A stretch of DNA of 14,224 bases from a virus (taxonomy: Duplodnaviria; Heunggongvirae; Uroviricota; Caudoviricetes): the IMG/VR virus record IMGVR_UViG_2565956613_000004, positions 1-14,224 of that record, one strand, 5' to 3'. The position numbers were made by a program, and so were the translations under genes. The notes beneath the pieces were generated by a model. It saw nothing but the letters and a program-made list of their open reading frames with translations, was not told where the DNA came from and did no database searches. This document shows positions 1 through 13,988 of the stretch, piece after piece. Within the stretch, counting starts at the first letter, position 1, and each line of letters begins with the position of its first letter.

Positions 1-63
1 CACGGTAGGAATTGTGATGGCGGCAGCACTGGGTTTGTATTCAATTTGTCGCTGGTGGTAACG

Positions 64-3459: not shown

Positions 3460-3849
3460 ATGGGCTTCCCTTCTCCTGCGGCGGATTATGTTGAAAGCCG
3501 AATTTCTCTTGATCAGCAGATAATTAGACATCCTTCAGCGACCTACTTCATGCGGGCAGCTGATAGCCATCACCGTGAGGGAATATTGCAGGGTGCTTTG
3601 CTGGTGGTTGATTCCTCGCTTACTCCGGTTGATGGTTCTCTGCTTGTGTGCGCTATGGAGGGTGAATATCGCATAAAGAGATACAGGAAGTATCCGCGCC
3701 AGCACCTGGAGGATTTAAGCACCGGGAAGAAAGAGGCGTTACCAGTAGATGACGATGGATACACGGGCAGTAATGCTGTTTTTGGTGTGATCACTCATGT
3801 CATCAATGATGCCCGAAGTGGGGAATTTGATGATTGTCCGGTTATTTAA
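3460..3849 (+). CDS. humD: HumD, UmuD'-like translesion-synthesis accessory protein encoded in the already-processed form
   Basis: N-terminus [30 protein letters not shown] matches UmuD' starting at Gly25 ([29 protein letters not shown]); FGVITHV matches UmuD FGVVIHV; GAGG RBS; LexA box upstream. Confidence 0.85.
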   Translation: [129 protein letters not shown]

Positions 3850-3884
3850 GCTGCAAAGTGCTGGTGCTTTATGCCTGTGAAGTT

Positions 3885-3915
3885 TATAATTGTGTACACA
3901 TAACGAGTACACGAG
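3885..3915 (+). promoter_or_regulatory. phd-doc promoter with palindromic autoregulatory operator (TATAAT followed by TGTGTACACA and GAGTACAC)
   Basis: TATAAT at 3885..3890; perfect 10-bp palindrome TGTGTACACA at 3891..3900 and a related GTACAC half-site just before the phd RBS, consistent with known Phd/Doc autorepression. Confidence 0.55.
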
Positions 3916-3921
3916 GTGTTT

Positions 3922-4143
3922 ATGCAATCCATTAACTTCCGTACCGCGCGTGGCAACCTTTCTGAAGTGCTCAACAATGTTGAAGCCGGGGAAGAGGTTG
4001 AAATCACCCGCAGAGGCCGTGAGCCAGCAGTAATTGTCAGCAAGGCTACTTTCGAAGCCTACAAAAAAGCGGCGCTGGATGCTGAATTTGCATCCCTGTT
4101 TGACACCCTGGACTCCACCAACAAGGAACTGGTTAACCGATAA
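3922..4143 (+). CDS. phd: Phd antitoxin (prevent host death), 73 aa
   Basis: [49 protein letters not shown]... recognised as P1 Phd; GAGG RBS before ATG 3922 (ORF track opens at an upstream GTG); stop overlaps the doc start (TAATG). Confidence 0.85.
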
Positions 4144-4523
4144 TGAGGCATATATCACCGGAAGAACTTATTGCGCTTCATGATGCGAATATAAGCCGCT
4201 ACGGCGGCCTGCCGGGAATGTCTGATCCGGGTAGGGCAGAGGCCATTATCGGGAGAGTTCAGGCCAGAGTTGCCTACGAAGAGATCACCGACCTTTTCGA
4301 AGTCTCCGCCACCTACCTGGTGGCTACAGCGAGAGGGCATATATTCAATGATGCCAATAAGCGTACCGCGCTAAACAGTGCGCTGCTATTTCTACGCCGT
4401 AACGGGGTGCAGGTATTTGATTCACCTGAACTGGCAGACCTTACTGTAGGCGCTGCGACTGGCGAGATATCTGTATCTTCTGTCGCCGACACGTTACGTA
4501 GATTGTATGGTTCTGCGGAGTAG
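4143..4523 (+). CDS. doc: Doc toxin (death on curing), Fic-fold kinase, 126 aa
   Basis: Fic-type motif [11 protein letters not shown]; size and position right after phd with a 1-nt overlap; sequence recognised as P1 Doc. Confidence 0.9.
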
Positions 4524-4527
4524 ATTA

Positions 4528-4707
4528 ATGGCACGCAAATACAACAAATTGTCCCGTGAAGCGTTAAAGATGCTTCTTGATGGCGCGAGTCGCCGCAAGG
4601 TAAAGCAATACCTGGTTGGTAAGCAAATTGGAGTCAGGACCGCTATTGCTGTGTTATGCCGTCAGGAAATGGTTGTGCTTAAACAGAGAATGCCGGGCAG
4701 CAGATAA
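4528..4707 (+). CDS. pdcA: small basic protein, PdcA-like (post-doc), 59 aa from ATG 4528
   Basis: ORF track 4507..4707; the ATG at 4528 lies 5 nt after the doc stop with GGAG 8 nt upstream; assignment as pdcA is by position in the P1 gene order as I recall it. Confidence 0.45.
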   Translation: MARKYNKLSREALKMLLDGASRRKVKQYLVGKQIGVRTAIAVLCRQEMVVLKQRMPGSR

Positions 4708-4734
4708 AGCCCAATCAGTGATTAAAGGTGTGAT

Positions 4735-5778
4735 GTGAAAGCCGTAATTACTCCCTTTGTACAGAAAGAGCTTGGCCTCGCCACGTTCAAAGTGGATCAG
4801 GAGGTCAGAAAGCTGGTGGAGGCTGGCCGTAAATTTATTATGGAGCCGGTGCCGCGTGAGTTAATCGAGCACATGGAAGACGGCCTCGTTGTTACCGAGC
4901 AAACCATGGCAACAAATGAGGCGTTGCAGCCGTTTTTTAACAGCGATGAACTGTTTCGCCGTATTGGTGGAATTGACGCGCTGGTGGCGTGGTTGCGTAG
5001 GAAAGAGGGTCAATGCCAGGCCGCAGATCGTAGTTGGTGTGACAACCATATTGTCCACGCTGAACGAGACAATAGCGCGGTGTTGTTGTGCTGGCATCAC
5101 GATAACCATTACCGGATGCGTGGTTTTAATGAGCTGAAAGAAACGCTGCACAATAATCGCGTTAACTGGATACTGGATGTCGCCCGTCAGGAAATGGGCC
5201 TTTCAAATAGCCATGATTTAAGTATTCAGGAGCTGTGCTGGTGGGCTTTCATGCGCAACATGATGCACCTGATGCCGGAAGAAGTCTGCCGCATATCAAT
5301 AAATAAGATGAAGGCTACTCCGCAGGATAGCGGACCTCTGAAAGAGGCGGATATTCGCCCGTATGACGATCGCGCTACAGCATATGTTCAGATGATGGAA
5401 GAACGCGCCGCGCCGATGCGTGCAAAAGTATGCCCTGTGGATGTTGACGCCGACCCTGGCATGGCGCATTTCAAAATACCAAAACTTCAATCGCTAAAAT
5501 TGCCCGAGTACATGGATTTTGTGGCTTCCCGTCCATGCTGTGGCTGTGGAGCTGCGGGAGCTGGCGCTCACATTACGCCTTATATCGTTCGTCATAGTCG
5601 ATTATGCGCGCATGACATTTATGCTGTTCCTCTGTGCCAGTCATGCCAGCGTGATATTGAGCGTGACCGCGATAATTGGGAGAAGACGCACGGTAGGCTG
5701 GCGATGCATCAACGATTGTTCTTTGATTACGCGCTTGGAGTCGGCGCTATCACAAGTCATTCGTCGAGCGTTAGATAA
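4735..5778 (+). CDS. pdcB: PdcB-like protein with two Cys/His-rich putative zinc-binding clusters, 347 aa
   Basis: GTG start with AAGGTG 4 nt upstream; clusters [25 protein letters not shown] and CCGCG...H...C.HD...PLCQSCQ suggest a zinc-finger or HNH-like nucleic-acid-binding fold; name from recalled P1 gene order. Confidence 0.65.
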
Positions 5779-6319: not shown

Positions 6320-6405
6320 TTGATTGCTTGCCCGTTCCGGGCCTTTTGACATGTGACTTTCGTTACCCTCGCGTCAAAAAGAGTTTTATACGAAAGGAAG
6401 CATAA

Positions 6406-7599
6406 GTGACCTGGGACGATCACAAGAAGAATTTTGCTCGCCTGGCGCGAGATGGTGGTTACACCATCGCACAATATGCCGCCGAGTTTAATCTCAACCC
6501 AAACACCGCACGTCGTTATCTCCGTGCATTCAAAGAAGACACCGGAACAGCGGACAGCCGTAAGCCAAATAAGCCTGTCAGAAAACCACTAAAAAGCATG
6601 ATCATTGATCACGCTAATGATCAACGTGCAGGTGATCACATTGTGGCTGAAATGGCTGAAAAACAAAGAGTTAATGCTGTTGTCAGTGCCGCAGTCGAGA
6701 ACGCGAAGCGCCAGAATAAGCGCATAAATGATCGTTCTGATGATCATGACGTGATCACCCGCGCCCACCGGACCTTACGTGATCGCCTGGAACGCGACAC
6801 CCTGGATGATGATGGTGAACGCTTTGAATTCGAAGCTGGCGATTACCTGATAGATAACGTTGAAGCGCGGAAGGCCGCGCGCGCTATGTTGCGTCGGTCC
6901 GGGGCCGATGTTCTGGAAACCACTCTTCTGGAAAAGTCTCTTTCTCATCTCCTTATGCTGGAGAACGCCAGGGATACGTGTATTCGCCTGGTGCAGGAAA
7001 TGCGCGATCAGCAAAAAGACGATGATGAAGGTACTCCGCCTGAATACCGTATCGCGAGCATGCTAAACAGCTGTTCCGCGCAGATAAGCAGCCTGATCAA
7101 CACCATTTACAGCATCCGGAATAACTATCGAAAAGAAAGCCGGGAGGCGGAAAAGCACGCTTTGTCTATGGGGCAAGCTGGCATTGTTAAGCTGGCATAC
7201 GAACGAAAGCGTGAAAATAACTGGTCAGTGCTGGAAGCAGCTGAATTCATCGAGGCGCATGGCGGGAAAGTGCCGCCCCTGATGCTGGAGCAAATCAAAG
7301 CCGATCTGCGTGCTCCTAAGACCAATACCGATGATGAGGAAAGGCAAACAGCCGTCGGTGGCCCTTCTCTTGAAGATCTGGACAAAGTTGCGCGAGAACG
7401 GGCCGCCAACCGCCGCGCCGATGCCGCATTGTGGATTGAGCAGCGTAGGGAAGAAATCGCCGATATCGTTGATACAGGCGGTTATGGAGATGTTGATACT
7501 GAAGGTGTATCAAACGACCCATGGCTGGAACAAGACCTGGACGAAGACGAGGAGGAAGACGAAGAAGTTACCCGCAAGCTATACGGGGATGATGATTAA
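6406..7599 (+). CDS. pacA: PacA, terminase small (pac-recognition) subunit, 397 aa
   Basis: GTG start with AAGGAAG RBS; contains the pac hexamer clusters internally; acidic C-terminal tail ([11 protein letters not shown]); stop overlaps the pacB start. Confidence 0.9.
6599..6757. other. pac packaging site: four TGATCA hexamers (6599, 6606, 6618, 6633) and three TGATC(A/G) hexamers (6729, 6741, 6752) flanking the cleavage region
   Basis: Hexamers read directly from the sequence; the 4 + 3 arrangement over about 160 bp inside pacA matches the known Dam-methylation-sensitive P1 pac site. Confidence 0.8.
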
Positions 7600-9083
7600 T
7601 GGCCAGAAGTTGCGTAACGGATCCACGTTGGCGCGAGCTGGTGGCGCTATATCGTTATGACTGGATTGCGGCCGCTGATGTTTTGTTCGGCAAAACACCT
7701 ACCTGGCAGCAGGATCTGATTATTGAGTCTGTGCAGGAACAGGGTAGCAAGACATCTGTTTCGTCTGGTCACGGTACCGGGAAATCAGACATGACTTCTA
7801 TCATGATCATGTTGTTCATAATCATGTATCCAGGTGCCCGTGCCATTATCGTTGCGAACAAAATTCAGCAGGTAATGACCGGTATATTCAAGTACATCAA
7901 GATAAACTGGGCTACTGCCACCAGCCGTTTCCCATGGCTTGCTGATTATTTTGTTCTGACAGAAACCGCTTTCTATGAGATTACTGGTAAAGGTGTATGG
8001 ACTGTAGTACCGAAGGGCTTTCGTCTGGGAAGTGAAGAAGCTCTCGCCGGTGAACACGCAGATCATCTTCTGTATATTATCGATGAAGCCTCCGGTGTCA
8101 GTGATAGAGCTTTCGGTATCATCACCGGTGCTCTTACCGGACAGGATAACCGCATCTTATTGCTGTCACAGCCTACACGCCCAAGCGGCTATTTCTACGA
8201 TACACACCATAAACTGGCCAAGCGTCCTGGTAACCCTGATGGCGTTTATACGGCGATCACGCTTAACAGTGAGGAATCACCGTTGGTAACGCCAGCATTT
8301 ATCAAAATGAAGCTGGCGGAGTACGGCGGGCGTGATAACCCTATGTACATGATTAAGGTACGCGGCCTATTCCCTAAATCACAGGATGGCTTCCTTCTTG
8401 GACGTGATGAGGTTGAACGTGCAACGCGGCGGAAAGTCAAGATTGCAAAAGGATGGGGCTGGCTTGCATGTGTGGACGTTGCTGGTGGTACGGGACGGGA
8501 TAAGTCCGTTATCAATATCATGATGGTGTCCGGCCAGCGAAATAAACGCCGTGTAATCAACTATCGAATGCTGGAATACACAGACGTTACAGAAACGCAG
8601 CTTGCCGCCAAAATTTTCGCAGAATGTAATCCTGAGCGATTCCCAAATATCACCATAGCGATAGACGGCGATGGCCTGGGTAAAGCAACGGCGGATCTGA
8701 TGTACGAGTATTATGGTATTACCGTACAGCGTATACGCTGGGGTAAAAAGATGCATAGCCGTGAAGATAAGAGCCTGTACTTTGATAAACGTGCTTATGC
8801 CAACGTTCAAGCCGCAGAGGCCGTAAAATCTGGTCGTATGAGACTGGATAAGGGTAATGAAACTATTGAGGAAGCGTCGAAAATCCCTGTAGGGATTAAC
8901 TCCGCAGGTCAATGGAAGGTGATGAGTAAGGAGGATATGAAGAAAAAACTCAACCTGCACTCACCAGACCATTGGGATACATATTGTTTCGCTATGCTGG
9001 CTGATTATGTTCCCCAGGATGAAGTGCTTAGCGTCGAAGACGAAGCGCAGGTTGATGAAGCTCTGGCATGGCTTAATGAATAA
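7599..9083 (+). CDS. pacB: PacB, terminase large subunit, 494 aa
   Basis: P-loop-like [10 protein letters not shown] near the N-terminus; ATG overlaps the pacA stop (TAATG); size and position as for P1 PacB. Confidence 0.9.
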
Positions 9084-9107
9084 CTCATTGACCATGCCGG
9101 ATAGAAA

Positions 9108-9959
9108 CTATTGCGCGCTTTCGGGGTTGTCGTTTACTGGCTGCCCCTTCTTAGTTTTACGGCTGCGCGTAACTGATGCGGCTGATTTGACCTTTTTCTC
9201 TTCGCGAGTGATGGCAATTTGTTTTTTTACATTTTCAATATCTGCCAGGCGATATATTTTTGCCTGCGGCCAGCGGTCGCAGATGATCGGTTCTATAGAG
9301 TCATAAAGGCTAAATTTTGCTTTCTCGAATTCACCGTTGATGATGATTCCATCACGGAGAGTTTCATCGCAGATAAACACACCACACAGCGGCACATGGT
9401 AACTAACTGATTTACCATCATTGTAGTTAGGGCTACTGGAAATGTAGTGGACGCGCAGCATTGTTTCGCTAAAGCCGTGTACACGCATACGGAATTTTTC
9501 ATCCTCCGGGTACTGCTTCATTAGCTCTTTTGTTGCTTCCAGGTTCTCTATGTATTTCGCACTGTGCTCATTGATCCCCGCGCTTTTCTGGATGCGAATG
9601 TCCTTATCAATCAGATGAATAATGCGGCCAGCGGTCATGTTGACGCTGTTCACAGCTTCTGTCTGATAAGTCGTAACCTTACGCACACCGCGAAGGATGT
9701 TAGGCACAGGATATAAAATAGTCTTTGGGATATTGAGGTCTGGGTACTGTTCCAGTTCCCGCGCCATTAAAGTCCATTTATCAATTTCAGCCTGAATGCT
9801 GTCCGTTTCTTTGAACGGTAGAACGACAACCGGGCGTACAGGACGACCGTCGCTGGCGGCATCAACGTGTTGGGCGCGTGCAACAGCTTTTTTTAGAAAG
9901 AGATCCCTGAAGCTGACGAACTCCTGGTACAGTTGTTCGCCGTAGACATAATTTATCAT
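9108..9959 (-). CDS. c1: C1 repressor of lysis (primary immunity repressor), 283 aa
   Basis: 283-aa protein beginning MINYVYGEQLYQEFVSFRDLF recognised as P1 C1; GGAGGAGGA RBS; preceded by coi and operator sites; matching operators occur elsewhere in the window. Confidence 0.9.
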   Translation of the reverse strand: MINYVYGEQLYQEFVSFRDLFLKKAVARAQHVDAASDGRPVRPVVVLPFKETDSIQAEIDKWTLMARELEQYPDLNIPKTILYPVPNILRGVRKVTTYQTEAVNSVNMTAGRIIHLIDKDIRIQKSAGINEHSAKYIENLEATKELMKQYPEDEKFRMRVHGFSETMLRVHYISSSPNYNDGKSVSYHVPLCGVFICDETLRDGIIINGEFEKAKFSLYDSIEPIICDRWPQAKIYRLADIENVKKQIAITREEKKVKSAASVTRSRKTKKGQPVNDNPESAQ

Positions 9960-9981
9960 TGATCCTCCTCCAGAATTGACA

Positions 9982-10024
9982 TGGCCAACAACTCACAGCG
10001 GATTACACTGGGAGTTGTTGGCCA
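9982..10024. repeat. perfect 13-bp inverted repeat TGGCCAACAACTC / GAGTTGTTGGCCA with a 17-nt loop, between coi and c1
   Basis: Read directly; lies in the coi-c1 intercistronic region just upstream of the c1 RBS; no T-run follows on either strand. Confidence 0.4.
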
Positions 10025-10069
10025 CCATTATAGAAGGATCCAACGAAAATAATAGATTTATTAGTGCAT

Positions 10070-10279
10070 TTATTGTGAGTCTGGCTGGTTAGTGGCCATG
10101 AGATATTCGATTGTGTCAGTGAGATCATCCAGGTCGTCTTGGGTGATGCGGTACTCCTGATTGGATATCTTTGAGTAGTGTTCAGCAATGGCGCGGGCAG
10201 CGTCGGTTTCGGCAGGGTCTACAGATAAAGCGTTAGAGCAATGTCTAACGTCGTCGATGGTTGGTGGAATGAAAGCCAT
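10070..10279 (-). CDS. coi: Coi, C1 inactivator, 69 aa
   Basis: 69-aa ORF directly upstream of c1 on the same strand, downstream of operator sites; size and sequence recalled as P1 Coi. Confidence 0.8.
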   Translation of the reverse strand: MAFIPPTIDDVRHCSNALSVDPAETDAARAIAEHYSKISNQEYRITQDDLDDLTDTIEYLMATNQPDSQ

Positions 10280-10517
10280 AATTATGCCTCACTGTATTGA
10301 CAACACAGAGCCTGAAGCTCTGACCTACTGTTTCACCCATGATCCATGCTGGGGTAATCTAACAACATTGCGCTGTGTGTAAGATGAGCAATGCATAGCT
10401 GTAATGCCGTTGTATAAGGTTTCCCTGTTTGCTCATTTCCTTCTGAGCCGCTCTACAACGCTGAAGACACATTAAATAGTGAATCCAAAGTCGTATTACG
10501 AAACGGCGGCAAAACTA

Positions 10518-10534
10518 TAATTTATTAGAGCAAT
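10518..10534 (-). promoter_or_regulatory. C1 operator (Op99-type), minus-strand sense ATTGCTCTAATAAATTA
   Basis: 16 of 17 match to the C1 operator consensus; about 240 bp upstream of the coi start. Confidence 0.65.
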
Positions 10535-10600
10535 TGTCAAACAACTATGAAAAACAATCCAGTTTTTGGCTGGTGGAGTGGGATTTTTCTCTCAAAATTT

Positions 10601-10617
10601 ATTGCTCTAATAATTCT
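10601..10617 (+). promoter_or_regulatory. C1 operator (Op99-type) ATTGCTCTAATAATTCT
   Basis: 14 of 17 match to consensus; opposite orientation to the site at 10518, in the coi/c1 control region. Confidence 0.6.
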
Positions 10618-10729
10618 TGATTTTTATGCGCAGCTGGACGTAAACTCCTCTTCGGGCCCTTAAGGGTTATTGAACATGATTAATTTACCTGTAAATCCAT
10701 ACAGTTCAATACCTTATCAGGTCAAATAG

Positions 10730-10751
10730 TGATCACTTGATCATTTGATCA
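10730..10751. promoter_or_regulatory. three TGATCA (Dam GATC) hexamers phased 8 bp apart in the cre upstream region
   Basis: TGATCActTGATCAttTGATCA read directly; a Dam-regulated cre promoter is described for P1 (recalled). Confidence 0.5.
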
Positions 10752-10756
10752 AGGTT

Positions 10757-10815
10757 GCGCTACGTAAAATCTGCGAAATGTTGGCAGTGTTAGTGCTCCA
10801 GATTTCGCGTAGCGC
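10757..10815. repeat. imperfect 17-bp inverted repeat GCGCTACGTAAAATCTG ... CAGATTTCGCGTAGCGC (15 of 17), 25-bp spacer
   Basis: Read directly; ends about 30 bp upstream of the RBS of the 73-aa ORF; no T-run, so more likely a protein-binding site or RNA structure than a terminator. Confidence 0.4.
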
Positions 10816-10847
10816 ACTTAGCACCACCAATCAATCAGAGGTGAAAA

Positions 10848-11069
10848 ATGGGATATTCAGCTGCTAAAGTGTCCACTCATATTGAGCTTGAGAAAAACCG
10901 TGGTTACTGGCGGGCAAAAGGGTTTGATCGTGATAGTTGTCAACTGTCATTATCGCGCGGTGAAGAGAAAATAGAACGCACGCGCGGTCGCTGGCGTTTC
11001 TATGACGAGAACCATAAACAGGTAAAGGCAGAGCCGATCCTGTACACTTTACTTAAAACCATTATCTGA
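10848..11069 (+). CDS. hypothetical 73-aa protein immediately upstream of cre
   Basis: ATG with AGAGGTG RBS at optimal spacing; stop 7 nt before the cre ATG, suggesting co-transcription; no recognisable family. Confidence 0.45.
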   Translation: MGYSAAKVSTHIELEKNRGYWRAKGFDRDSCQLSLSRGEEKIERTRGRWRFYDENHKQVKAEPILYTLLKTII

Positions 11070-11076
11070 GTGTTAA

Positions 11077-12108
11077 ATGTCCAATTTACTGACCGTACAC
11101 CAAAATTTGCCTGCATTACCGGTCGATGCAACGAGTGATGAGGTTCGCAAGAACCTGATGGACATGTTCAGGGATCGCCAGGCGTTTTCTGAGCATACCT
11201 GGAAAATGCTTCTGTCCGTTTGCCGGTCGTGGGCGGCATGGTGCAAGTTGAATAACCGGAAATGGTTTCCCGCAGAACCTGAAGATGTTCGCGATTATCT
11301 TCTATATCTTCAGGCGCGCGGTCTGGCAGTAAAAACTATCCAGCAACATTTGGGCCAGCTAAACATGCTTCATCGTCGGTCCGGGCTGCCACGACCAAGT
11401 GACAGTAATGCTGTTTCACTGGTCATGCGACGGATCCGAAAAGAAAACGTTGATGCCGGTGAACGTGCAAAACAGGCACTGGCGTTCGAACGCACTGATT
11501 TCGACCAGGTTCGTTCACTCATGGAAAATAGCGATCGCTGCCAGGATATACGTAATCTGGCATTTCTGGGGATTGCTTATAACACCCTGTTACGTATAGC
11601 CGAAATTTCCAGGATCAGGGTTAAAGATATCTCACGTACTGACGGTGGGAGAATGTTAATCCATATTGGCAGAACGAAAACGCTGGTTAGCACCGCTGGT
11701 GTAGAGAAGGCACTTAGCCTGGGGGTAACTAAACTGGTTGAGCGATGGATTTCTGTCTCTGGTGTAGCTGATGATCCGAATAACTACCTGTTTTGCCGCG
11801 TCAGAAAAAATGGTGTTGCCGCTCCATCATCCACCAGCCAGCTATCAACTCGCGCCCTGGAAGGGATTTTTGAAGCAACTCACCGATTGATTTACGGGGC
11901 AAAAGATGACTCTGGTCAGCGATACCTGGCCTGGTCTGGACATAGTGCCCGTGTCGGTGCCGCGCGAGATATGGCCCGAGCCGGAGTTTCTATACCGGAG
12001 ATCATGCAAGCTGGTGGCTGGACCAACGTAAATATTGTCATGAACTACATTCGTAACCTGGATAGTGAAACGGGGGCAATGGTGCGCCTGCTGGAAGATG
12101 GCGATTAG
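11077..12108 (+). CDS. cre: Cre tyrosine site-specific recombinase, 343 aa
   Basis: Near-identical to P1 Cre as I recall it (MSNLLTVHQNLPALPVDATSDEVRKNLMDMFRDRQAFSEHTWKMLLSVCRSWAAWCK...); C-terminal catalytic region with HSARVGAARDMARAG and GGWTNVNIVMNYIRNLDSE; differs from my recalled P1 sequence at two positions (IAEISRIRV, APSSTSQ). Confidence 0.97.
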   Translation: MSNLLTVHQNLPALPVDATSDEVRKNLMDMFRDRQAFSEHTWKMLLSVCRSWAAWCKLNNRKWFPAEPEDVRDYLLYLQARGLAVKTIQQHLGQLNMLHRRSGLPRPSDSNAVSLVMRRIRKENVDAGERAKQALAFERTDFDQVRSLMENSDRCQDIRNLAFLGIAYNTLLRIAEISRIRVKDISRTDGGRMLIHIGRTKTLVSTAGVEKALSLGVTKLVERWISVSGVADDPNNYLFCRVRKNGVAAPSSTSQLSTRALEGIFEATHRLIYGAKDDSGQRYLAWSGHSARVGAARDMARAGVSIPEIMQAGGWTNVNIVMNYIRNLDSETGAMVRLLEDGD

Positions 12109-12125
12109 CCGTTCATTTGCTCTTT

Positions 12126-12142
12126 ATTGCTCTAATTATTTG
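12126..12142 (+). promoter_or_regulatory. C1 operator-like site ATTGCTCTAATTATTTG with a partial copy (ATTTGCTCT) just upstream
   Basis: 14 of 17 match to consensus; 18 bp after the cre stop and 17 bp before the 103-aa ORF; resembles the Op2 arrangement that controls ref in P1. Confidence 0.55.
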
Positions 12143-12158
12143 ATATTTATGGTTACAC

Positions 12159-12470
12159 ATGCGGAAGGATTTCAAAATAGACGGAAAATATGTGGTGCTG
12201 TCTGTAAGCTCTCAAATTCAGTCACCATCTGTCATTGTCACCGTAAAGTTGAGCGATAGGATGCCTGATATCGACTCGATATCTGTTGCGTTCCCCGTTA
12301 AAAGCATGCGGAGTGCTGAACATTTTGTGATGAATGCAACGGAGGAGGAAGCACGGCGCGGGCTTACTAGAGTGATGGCGGAATTTGGCGAACTCCTGGG
12401 TAAGGTAAACAATGCCCTTTCAATCAGTTCAGCAAGATCCAAAGCGTTAACAGCTTCCATGATGAAATAA
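12159..12470 (+). CDS. hypothetical 103-aa protein behind a C1 operator (no Cys, one His)
   Basis: ORF track; ends immediately before the hairpin at 12476..12496; weak RBS; preferred over the overlapping minus-strand ORF, which needs a TTG start and spans the hairpin. Confidence 0.4.
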   Translation: MRKDFKIDGKYVVLSVSSQIQSPSVIVTVKLSDRMPDIDSISVAFPVKSMRSAEHFVMNATEEEARRGLTRVMAEFGELLGKVNNALSISSARSKALTASMMK

Positions 12471-12475
12471 AAAAA

Positions 12476-12496
12476 AGCCTGGCAAGGAGCCAGGCT
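12476..12496 (-). terminator. rho-independent terminator for the minus-strand antirepressor-like transcript (stem AGCCTGGC / GCCAGGCT, loop AAGGA, U-run on the minus strand)
   Basis: Plus strand reads A8-GCCTGGC-AAGGA-GCCAGGC; on the minus strand the hairpin is followed by a T8 run; on the plus strand no T-run follows. Confidence 0.5.
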
Positions 12497-12618
12497 GCAC
12501 AAAAGAGCGGGGTTGTATTCCGCATCCAATCAATCAAGAAGGAGTATAGCACACAGGTACTGAAGAGAAAAAATGTGATTCGCGATAGATAAAATAGCCA
12601 CTATTGTTATAATTAATT

Positions 12619-12699
12619 GCCATAATTGAGTTATGGCTTTAGTCAACTACGAAGACATTGCCATTATAGACTCCGTGACATCATTGGCGGCCGAAAGGC
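12619..12699 (+). ncRNA. candidate ~80-nt small RNA: extended -10 promoter (TGTTATAAT at 12605..12613), 5' hairpin GCCATAA-TTGAG-TTATGGC, 3' intrinsic terminator
   Basis: All elements read directly; no convincing ORF (the 72-aa ORF 12633..12851 runs through the terminator); complementary to the 3' UTR of the convergent minus-strand mRNA. Not tested. Confidence 0.2.
12676..12699 (+). terminator. strong rho-independent terminator on the plus strand (GGCGGCC-GAAA-GGCCGCC followed by TTTTTT)
   Basis: Perfect 7-bp GC stem with GAAA tetraloop and a T6 run, read directly; ends the cre-side transcription unit and/or a short transcript from the promoter at 12605..12613. Confidence 0.7.
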
Positions 12700-12711
12700 C
12701 GCCTTTTTTAA

Positions 12712-13770
12712 TCATTCAGCCGCCACCGGTTTTAACAAGCCAGCATCGAGCAGTTTACGCGTCAACCACTGTTGGCCTTTCCCCGTTAATTGAGGCGTCA
12801 GCCGTATCTGATAGCCATCTTCATCATCCAGCACCACTTCTTTCACTGTGAAATATCCGGCGTTTATGTACTGCTGAAACGGTACATTTTTACGTCCGCC
12901 GGACGCAATCAGGATGCCGTTCTCCCGTAACCAGGTAAACAACGCGTTTTGCTTAAGCCCAACAACCTTTGCAAAATTTCCAATCAGGATCCCCTTGGCC
13001 CCTGATACCCGGTCGGCAAAATCGACTTTAGGGGCGGCGGCCACCAGCTGCTGATTTAGCTGGTGGGCTTTCTGTTCCAGAAGTTGCTTTTGTTCAGCCA
13101 GCTCGGCAGCCAGGCGCAGAGCTTCGGGGAGTGTTTGGGGAATCACTGGAGAAGCAGTGCTAGCCTGCTGCAATTCCTCCAGTTTGTCGATCAGCGAACG
13201 GCGGACCGCTTTTGACTCGCGCGCGGCAACTCTCAGGGCTTGTTTGTAGGTCATGGAGATAGTTTCAGATGTTGTGTTGTTTAATTTTTGCACTACGAAA
13301 ATTTCGTAGTACTCACCATCCAGTTCATCCTTAACTCTGGCAATAAAATCATTATTGCGAACTGGTTTTTCGCTACATAATTTCCGCGCTTCATTGACCA
13401 TCTTTAACAGCGTCTGGCTGTCGATTGTGTCTCCGGTGTTGGGGATAGCATCCATGGCCGTTGCTGGTGTGGTTGCTGTCAAAGGCTTTGTAACGACAAC
13501 ATCTGGTTTGCTTGCTTTCATTCTGTGTGCCTCCTTGCGTGTTTCGGCTGCGACGGTTGCGTAATTCAGATGCCCCTGTTCGAGCAGGTATTCGCGAATA
13601 TCAGACAGCAGGATACGGTGAACCGCGTTCTTGTCCTTTCTCCGGTAAAGTTGTTTGGTGATCATGAAGTAGTTGGCAATAACACCCGGTATATCCCTGG
13701 TACTGATACAGGCAGTGTGCTGTTCAATTGCCTCAATCATCTCTTCACGGGTGACTAATGACGTTCTCAT
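12712..13770 (-). CDS. antirepressor-like protein with a C-terminal KilA-C/ANT-type domain, 352 aa
   Basis: Strong GGAGGG RBS 4 nt before the ATG; C-terminal segment FADRVSGAKGILIGNFAKVVGLKQNALFTWLRENGIL...NVPFQQYINAGYFTVKEV...TPQLTGKGQQWL resembles phage antirepressor C-terminal (KilA-C/ANT) domains; the N-terminal ~80 aa may be Rha-like, which is uncertain. Confidence 0.75.
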   Translation of the reverse strand: MRTSLVTREEMIEAIEQHTACISTRDIPGVIANYFMITKQLYRRKDKNAVHRILLSDIREYLLEQGHLNYATVAAETRKEAHRMKASKPDVVVTKPLTATTPATAMDAIPNTGDTIDSQTLLKMVNEARKLCSEKPVRNNDFIARVKDELDGEYYEIFVVQKLNNTTSETISMTYKQALRVAARESKAVRRSLIDKLEELQQASTASPVIPQTLPEALRLAAELAEQKQLLEQKAHQLNQQLVAAAPKVDFADRVSGAKGILIGNFAKVVGLKQNALFTWLRENGILIASGGRKNVPFQQYINAGYFTVKEVVLDDEDGYQIRLTPQLTGKGQQWLTRKLLDAGLLKPVAAE

Positions 13771-13988
13771 AGTCCCTCCTGAGCAGAAGCGTTAACAGGG
13801 AGGCACCAGTAACTGAGAGAATTGCGCGAATCGGTAGAAAAACGGGCGGAGAAAATGCAGGGAGCATCCGGAAGCTGAGAACGTGCCTCATCTTCTGTTG
13901 GTGCGATAACGAAGTGATAGTGACGTTTTTGACAAGAATAGAAGCGCCAGATGAATTCAGGGCGTGCGCAAGGATTGGCATTAACCAT
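13767..13988 (-). CDS. possible 73-aa ORF upstream of and overlapping (ATGA) the antirepressor-like gene
   Basis: ORF track; GAGG 9 nt upstream of the ATG; the stop overlapping the downstream ATG is forced by the frame, so support is weak. Confidence 0.25.
   Translation of the reverse strand: MVNANPCARPEFIWRFYSCQKRHYHFVIAPTEDEARSQLPDAPCIFSARFSTDSRNSLSYWCLPVNASAQEGL

Follow-up and report, generated by a model that had tools for sequence, protein, structure and literature searches.

The closest described counterparts of this locus are the immC-loxP-cra-cre regions of phage P1 (NC_005856.1, 93231-94800 plus 1-1467), phiW39 (AY751748) and P7 (AY751747), in which c1, coi, imcB and imcA are followed by the lox site and then by cra, cre and c8. 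In the P1 record, loxP occupies positions 94784..94800 plus 1..17 and cre starts at position 436, which leaves 418 nt between them. The window described below has exactly this spacing, which refutes the suggestion, made in the preliminary description of this DNA, that the position expected for loxP might be wrong.

The stretch of DNA analysed here (hereafter, the window) is the whole of the draft Escherichia coli scaffold KI521589.1 (14,224 bp; assembly GCA_000485615.1). It represents the late-gene / phd-doc / pacAB / immC / cre end of a P1-type (Punavirus) phage-plasmid and contains only 14.2 kb of the roughly 95-kb plasmid. Many E. coli plasmids are 99.0-99.5% identical to its first 12.7 kb, and the interval 10280-11076 shows 98-99.5% identity to the immC-lox-cra region of phiW39, SJ46, 813R1, P7 and others; the surrounding 14 kb is wild-type mosaic P1-like sequence with nothing unusual about it. 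The genes run in the order c1-coi-imcBA-cra-cre-c8, which is the P1 layout and which the window shares with all three reference regions, with no gap besides the lox site. The operators, the LexA box and the Dam-regulated cre promoters of P1 also lie where synteny places them. The genes and regulatory elements are as follows.

9108-9959, minus strand: c1 repressor gene (283 aa)
10070-10279, minus strand: coi, encoding the C1 inactivator (69 aa)
10245-10340, minus strand: imcB, transferred from the phiW39 annotation through a gapless alignment
10359-10472, minus strand: imcA, transferred in the same way
10511-10540, minus strand: promoter P1coi, coordinates mapped gaplessly from P1; in this region the direct sequence comparison with P1 covered Oc1d alone
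10518-10534, within P1coi: C1 operator Oc1d, sequence directly compared with P1
10601-10617, plus strand: C1 operator Oc1e, ATTGCTCTAATAATTCT, from the P1 annotation and identical to P1
10617-10646, plus strand: promoter P4cre, identical to P1, just upstream of the missing lox site
10678-10681, plus strand: position of Dam methylation site 1 in the P1 annotation, reading GATT and not GATC
10682-10709, minus strand: promoter P2coi, overlapping the LexA box
10687-10706: LexA box ACCTGTAAATCCATACAGTT, identical to P1
10739-10742 and 10747-10750: Dam sites 2 and 3 (GATC), associated with P3cre
10745-10770, plus strand: promoter P3cre, identical to P1
10848-11069, plus strand: cra, Cre-associated gene (73 aa)
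11077-12108, plus strand: cre (343 aa)
12159-12470, plus strand: c8

Downstream of c8, the window departs from P1 and phiW39, both of which carry ref at this point. In its place there is an ant/icd module on the minus strand (12710-13988), consisting of a gene for a KilAC antirepressor (Ant, 352 aa, 12712-13770) and an icd-like gene (13767-13988). The alignment of most relatives to the window ends at 12709, and in a collection of 15 billion proteins the exact Ant protein of the window was found in a single contig, namely this one.

The preliminary description called the Cre protein almost identical to that of P1 and placed c1 and coi upstream of its gene; both statements hold. Window Cre matches P1 Cre at 341 of 343 positions, the only differences being A178S and A252S, and the catalytic residues R173, E176, K201, H289, R292, W315 and Y324 are all unchanged, as in a P1-family Cre-loxP module; the product also matches the Pfam Phage_integrase family. 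The cre gene is intact and the same as the common allele: the protein collection has the exact window Cre in 3,987 of its blocks and the exact Cra in 17,720. We noticed that many public records (e.g. CP148519.1, ON470617.2 and OQ595196.1) name cra 'creatininase' and the native cre 'GST-loxP-cre recombinase fusion protein'; these labels look like annotation-transfer errors.

The central observation of the preliminary description, that no canonical loxP accompanies this near-P1 cre, was borne out: the window contains neither loxP nor any lox-like site. The strings that it quoted, two short fragments of loxP and the palindromic elements of the interval upstream of cre, are all present at the positions given.

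6386-6394: fragment TTATACGAA
10491-10502: fragment TCGTATTACGAA
10657-10666: palindrome CCCTTAAGGG
10665-10675: inverted-repeat half GGTTATTGAAC
10683-10696: ATTTACCTGTAAAT
10704-10713: inverted-repeat half GTTCAATACC

Single loxP arms with up to three mismatches occur three times in the whole window, against 3.5 expected, and never in 10280-11076. No 13-8-13 site with up to three mismatches was found in the window, and the best candidate of that architecture there has mismatches at 10 of the 26 arm positions, the same as in shuffled sequence. The 34-bp loxP that should lie about 0.4 kb upstream of cre is accordingly missing from the deposited sequence, a statement that concerns the record only.

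Alignment with P1 shows precisely what is missing. Gapless blocks join P1 93000-94776 to window 8877-10653 and P1 19-1600 to window 10660-12241; the stretch left between the two blocks measures 42 nt in P1 and 6 nt in the window, and the distance from window position 10659 to 11076 reproduces the 418-nt spacing to cre. Alignment with phiW39, 813R1 and P7 places the gap between 10658 and 10659, where BLAST blocks stop and restart, and fixes its size at exactly 36 bp, TAATAACTTCGTATAGCATACATTATACGAAGTTAT, which consists of TA and the 34-bp loxP. Where the relatives read ...CTTCGGGCC TAATAACTTCGTATAGCATACATTATACGAAGTTAT CTTAAGGG..., the window reads ...CTTCGGGCC CTTAAGGG...; in other words, the loxP-bearing relatives have these 36 bp between GGGCC and CTTAAGGG. 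The end points are unambiguous, no microhomology was found at the deletion ends, and the join is continuous in a window that contains no N. Compared with plasmid NZ_LR890200, gene coordinates are the same through coi and are then offset by 36, the sole length change in 12.7 kb. The P1 alignment of 10280..11076 that had been proposed as a check found unbroken synteny, together with an absence of 36 bp at 10658/10659 and no lox variant. The idea that the site was displaced or had diverged in this element is not supported by such a clean absence with gapless P1 homology on both sides. Nor do the other palindromes, proposed as possible Cre targets, provide a substitute lox: they correspond to the LexA box and P2coi and are identical to P1, whereas CCCTTAAGGG is a scar, which, like the GGGCCC hexamer, is generated by the junction GGGCC/CTTAAGGG.

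The nearby regulatory sites are intact in the window. Dam site 1 reads GATT also in other members of this group (16 of 83 related loci), and its T variant is a natural polymorphism. An assembly error was considered for this substitution, which lies 23 bp from the junction, and was rejected, the T variant being common in related loci. Loci with GATT have lost one of the three annotated Dam sites of the cre regulatory region.

Public records show how rare a loxP-less junction is. The region has about 700 matches among the plasmids of PLSDB and about 700 among the records of complete E. coli genomes, and every match listed came in two pieces, with 35-36 bp more than the query. Junction-specific queries with three left-flank alleles returned no loxP-less record from PLSDB or the complete E. 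coli genomes; a positive control of the same length recovered 332 plasmids. Species-representative genome and metagenome collections likewise yielded no loxP-less junction. Among draft contigs with the exact Cre or Cra, 20 of 20 sampled keep loxP, with a coi-cra spacing of 605 nt (569 nt in the window), and the loxP spacing was kept in all ten sampled contigs that encode the exact window Cre. In the loxP-bearing loci that were fetched, loxP was exact in each case (85/85). The bases that touch it vary, with TA or TG before and C or A after the site, and the left flank further out reads AGACC, GGACC, GGGCC, AGATC or AGGCC. An invariant loxP between variable flanks signifies strong purifying selection on the site itself.

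The exceptions came from IMG/VR, which was scanned with any 0-14 nt allowed between conserved anchors. Only two contigs, IMGVR_UViG_2565956626_000007 and IMGVR_UViG_2565956617_000003, lack loxP, which is present in all 82 others. The genome ids of the two differ by 9, and ids of the form 2565956xxx do not occur among the 82 contigs with loxP. Membership of this id series by both loxP-less contigs (2/2) as against 0/82 loxP-bearing ones indicates a batch effect among the IMG/VR records.

The three loxP-less records do not form a single lineage. Over 8.1 kb, the window and the 2565956626 contig share 98.4% identity; for the 2565956617 contig, identity is 97.7% with the window and 98.8% with the 2565956626 contig. 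Immediately next to the junction, 3 and 5 bp from it, the 2565956626 contig reads AGACC and the window GGGCC, so that the losses must be regarded as independent, and the same loss must therefore have occurred at least three times. On each side of the junction, a 250-bp flank of the 2565956626 contig is identical to loxP-bearing contigs. That contig lacks 36 bp, as does the window, and in the nearest intact haplotypes of both, loxP is always followed by C. In the 2565956617 contig 37 bp are missing (junction AGACC/TTAAGGG), and A follows loxP in every one of its nearest intact haplotypes; the A allele of this contig is taken from these nearest haplotypes, its GAAT right-flank type occurring with C as well. 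The loss is accordingly independent of phylogeny, affecting three haplotypes that are 97.7-98.8% identical, and, for the two IMG contigs, is tied to a data batch by ids of a single series.

Both lengths match a laboratory oligonucleotide. In 454 Titanium 8-kb paired-end libraries, a 42-bp loxP linker is joined by Cre (PMC6992861); the sequence of the 454 paired-end linker is TCGTATAACTTCGTATAATGTATGCTATACGAAGTTATTACG, with the reverse complement CGTAATAACTTCGTATAGCATACATTATACGAAGTTATACGA (PMC5199103, PMC7038657). Adapters containing loxP are also used in Illumina Cre-lox mate pairs (PMC6992861). When the native sequence is compared with the reverse strand of the linker, CG-TAATAACTTCGTATAGCATACATTATACGAAGTTAT-ACGA, their longest exact match is precisely the 36 bp that are missing. 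In alleles where A follows loxP, it extends to 37 bp, which yielded a prediction that was then tested: the 2565956617 contig agrees with it. What is missing is in each case the maximal exact linker match, 36 bp (TA...C) or 37 bp (TA...A).

We consider it very probable that the missing loxP was removed in silico, as linker or adaptor, by the pipeline of one project. A linker/adaptor screen would have taken the native TA+loxP(+A) for the library linker, would have excised the exactly matching span and would have left the two flanks joined. We infer that software was the agent, and we likewise infer the stage at which it acted, be it read splitting by the assembler, clean-up of contigs at the sequencing centre or the response of the submitter to an adaptor screen. 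An excision of this kind lies outside the options offered in the preliminary description, and the absence of the site is best filed as something other than a real biological feature. The underlying DNA most likely has loxP despite the record, and we conclude that in the real plasmid an ordinary loxP lies 418 nt upstream of cre.

The main rival is a natural deletion, in which a P1-type sub-lineage lost loxP, for example by palindrome-stimulated excision, and kept cre. We regard it as very unlikely, even though the deposited records read through the junction without Ns and the loss is seen in three of them. The inverted-repeat structure of loxP also speaks for such a loss, since repeats of this kind can be unstable. 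Against it stand the different haplotypes, one of them with SNPs 3 and 5 bp off the junction, which would require three independent identical events, and the ends of the gap, which match a synthetic linker to the base and move from a 36-bp to a 37-bp span according to the flanking allele, as no natural mechanism predicts. The gap ends follow the boundary of identity with a synthetic oligonucleotide, and a natural process has no reason to do so. The lack of microhomology counts against a natural deletion as well, and it led us to reject slipped-strand deletion in particular. Further, no loxP-less junction was found among the approximately 1,400 matching plasmid and complete-genome records, both other cases fall in one IMG id batch, and the window has the common allele of cre in intact form. 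It is very unlikely that P1-type phage-plasmids repeatedly and precisely lose loxP, along with 2-3 flanking nucleotides, in nature while cre stays intact; if they did, Cre-positive, lox-negative plasmids would have to cyclise and to resolve dimers in some other way. A reaction of Cre with a secondary site was rejected on established mechanism. Strand exchange by Cre takes place within the 8-bp spacer, which gives a hybrid lox and never the loss of a whole site; here the whole site plus 2 nt has gone and there is no hybrid lox.

That lox moved elsewhere on the replicon, or diverged beyond recognition, is highly improbable. The scaffold does cover just 14.2 kb of a plasmid of roughly 95 kb, which leaves room for a relocated site, but its flanks show 98-100% identity to loxP-bearing relatives as far as the very edge of the gap, the block is simply absent, the window has no 13-8-13 site beyond chance and, in all sampled contigs, the same Cre protein adjoins a canonical loxP in its canonical place. 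An engineered deletion of loxP is scarcely credible. It would explain why GGGCCC, an ApaI site and hence a potential cloning scar, falls exactly at the junction; GGGCC, however, is a natural left-flank allele (found in 813R1 and in two IMG/VR contigs) and the sixth base, C, is the natural base after loxP. Moreover, the joins in the other two loxP-less records, AGACCC and AGACCT, have no ApaI site, and the 14 kb around the junction are wild-type in character. Removal of a linker look-alike in silico remains the explanation that we prefer.

One of the relatives used here, phage vB_EcoM-813R1 (ON470617.2), has peculiarities of its own. Its c1 (1857-2680) and cre (3834-4865) are each annotated as two CDS, and over 3.4 kb on the upstream side of lox its only differences from the window are three single-base gaps, with no substitution; the split CDS and the single-base gaps are probably indel errors in that record. 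In the comparison with window positions 7277-12709, there are no substitutions up to lox and about 94% identity downstream, through cre and c8, so that the two sides of lox differ in ancestry. The divergence becomes dense from about position 11200, inside cre.

In biological terms the finding is minor, since apart from the site missing in the record this is a standard P1-type immC-lox-cre region. It is a warning about data quality: where native sequence happens to be the same as a linker, an adaptor or a piece of vector used in the laboratory, it can be cut out of public assemblies unnoticed, and the loxP of P1-like plasmids is a clear example. Such records would pass for natural loss in studies that survey lox sites, the joint occurrence of Cre and lox or the stability functions of phage-plasmids. 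It is advisable to screen older draft assemblies of Enterobacteriaceae that carry P1 for the scar, RGRCC followed directly by CTTAAGGG or TTAAGGG. The loxP-less read-through of the junction is GGGCCCTTAAGGG, and the wider scar pattern is CTCTTC-RGRCC(TG)?-C?TTAAGGGTTATTGAA.

Set beside P1, the window has Oc1d, Oc1e, P4cre, the LexA box and P3cre with identical sequence, and its record differs in lacking the 34-bp loxP with the preceding 2 nt and in the GATT at Dam site 1. Set beside the trimming artefacts known from the 454 Titanium loxP linker, it shares their hallmarks, in that the missing bases are the maximal linker match and that the loss recurs on unrelated haplotypes and is limited to entries whose database ids are neighbours. 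It differs in one respect: the usual linker handling at the read level splits reads and would break the contig, whereas in the window the flanks are rejoined directly. This seamless join without Ns suggests an excision at the contig level, e.g. during clean-up at the centre or in response to an adaptor screen, or else an unusual pipeline.
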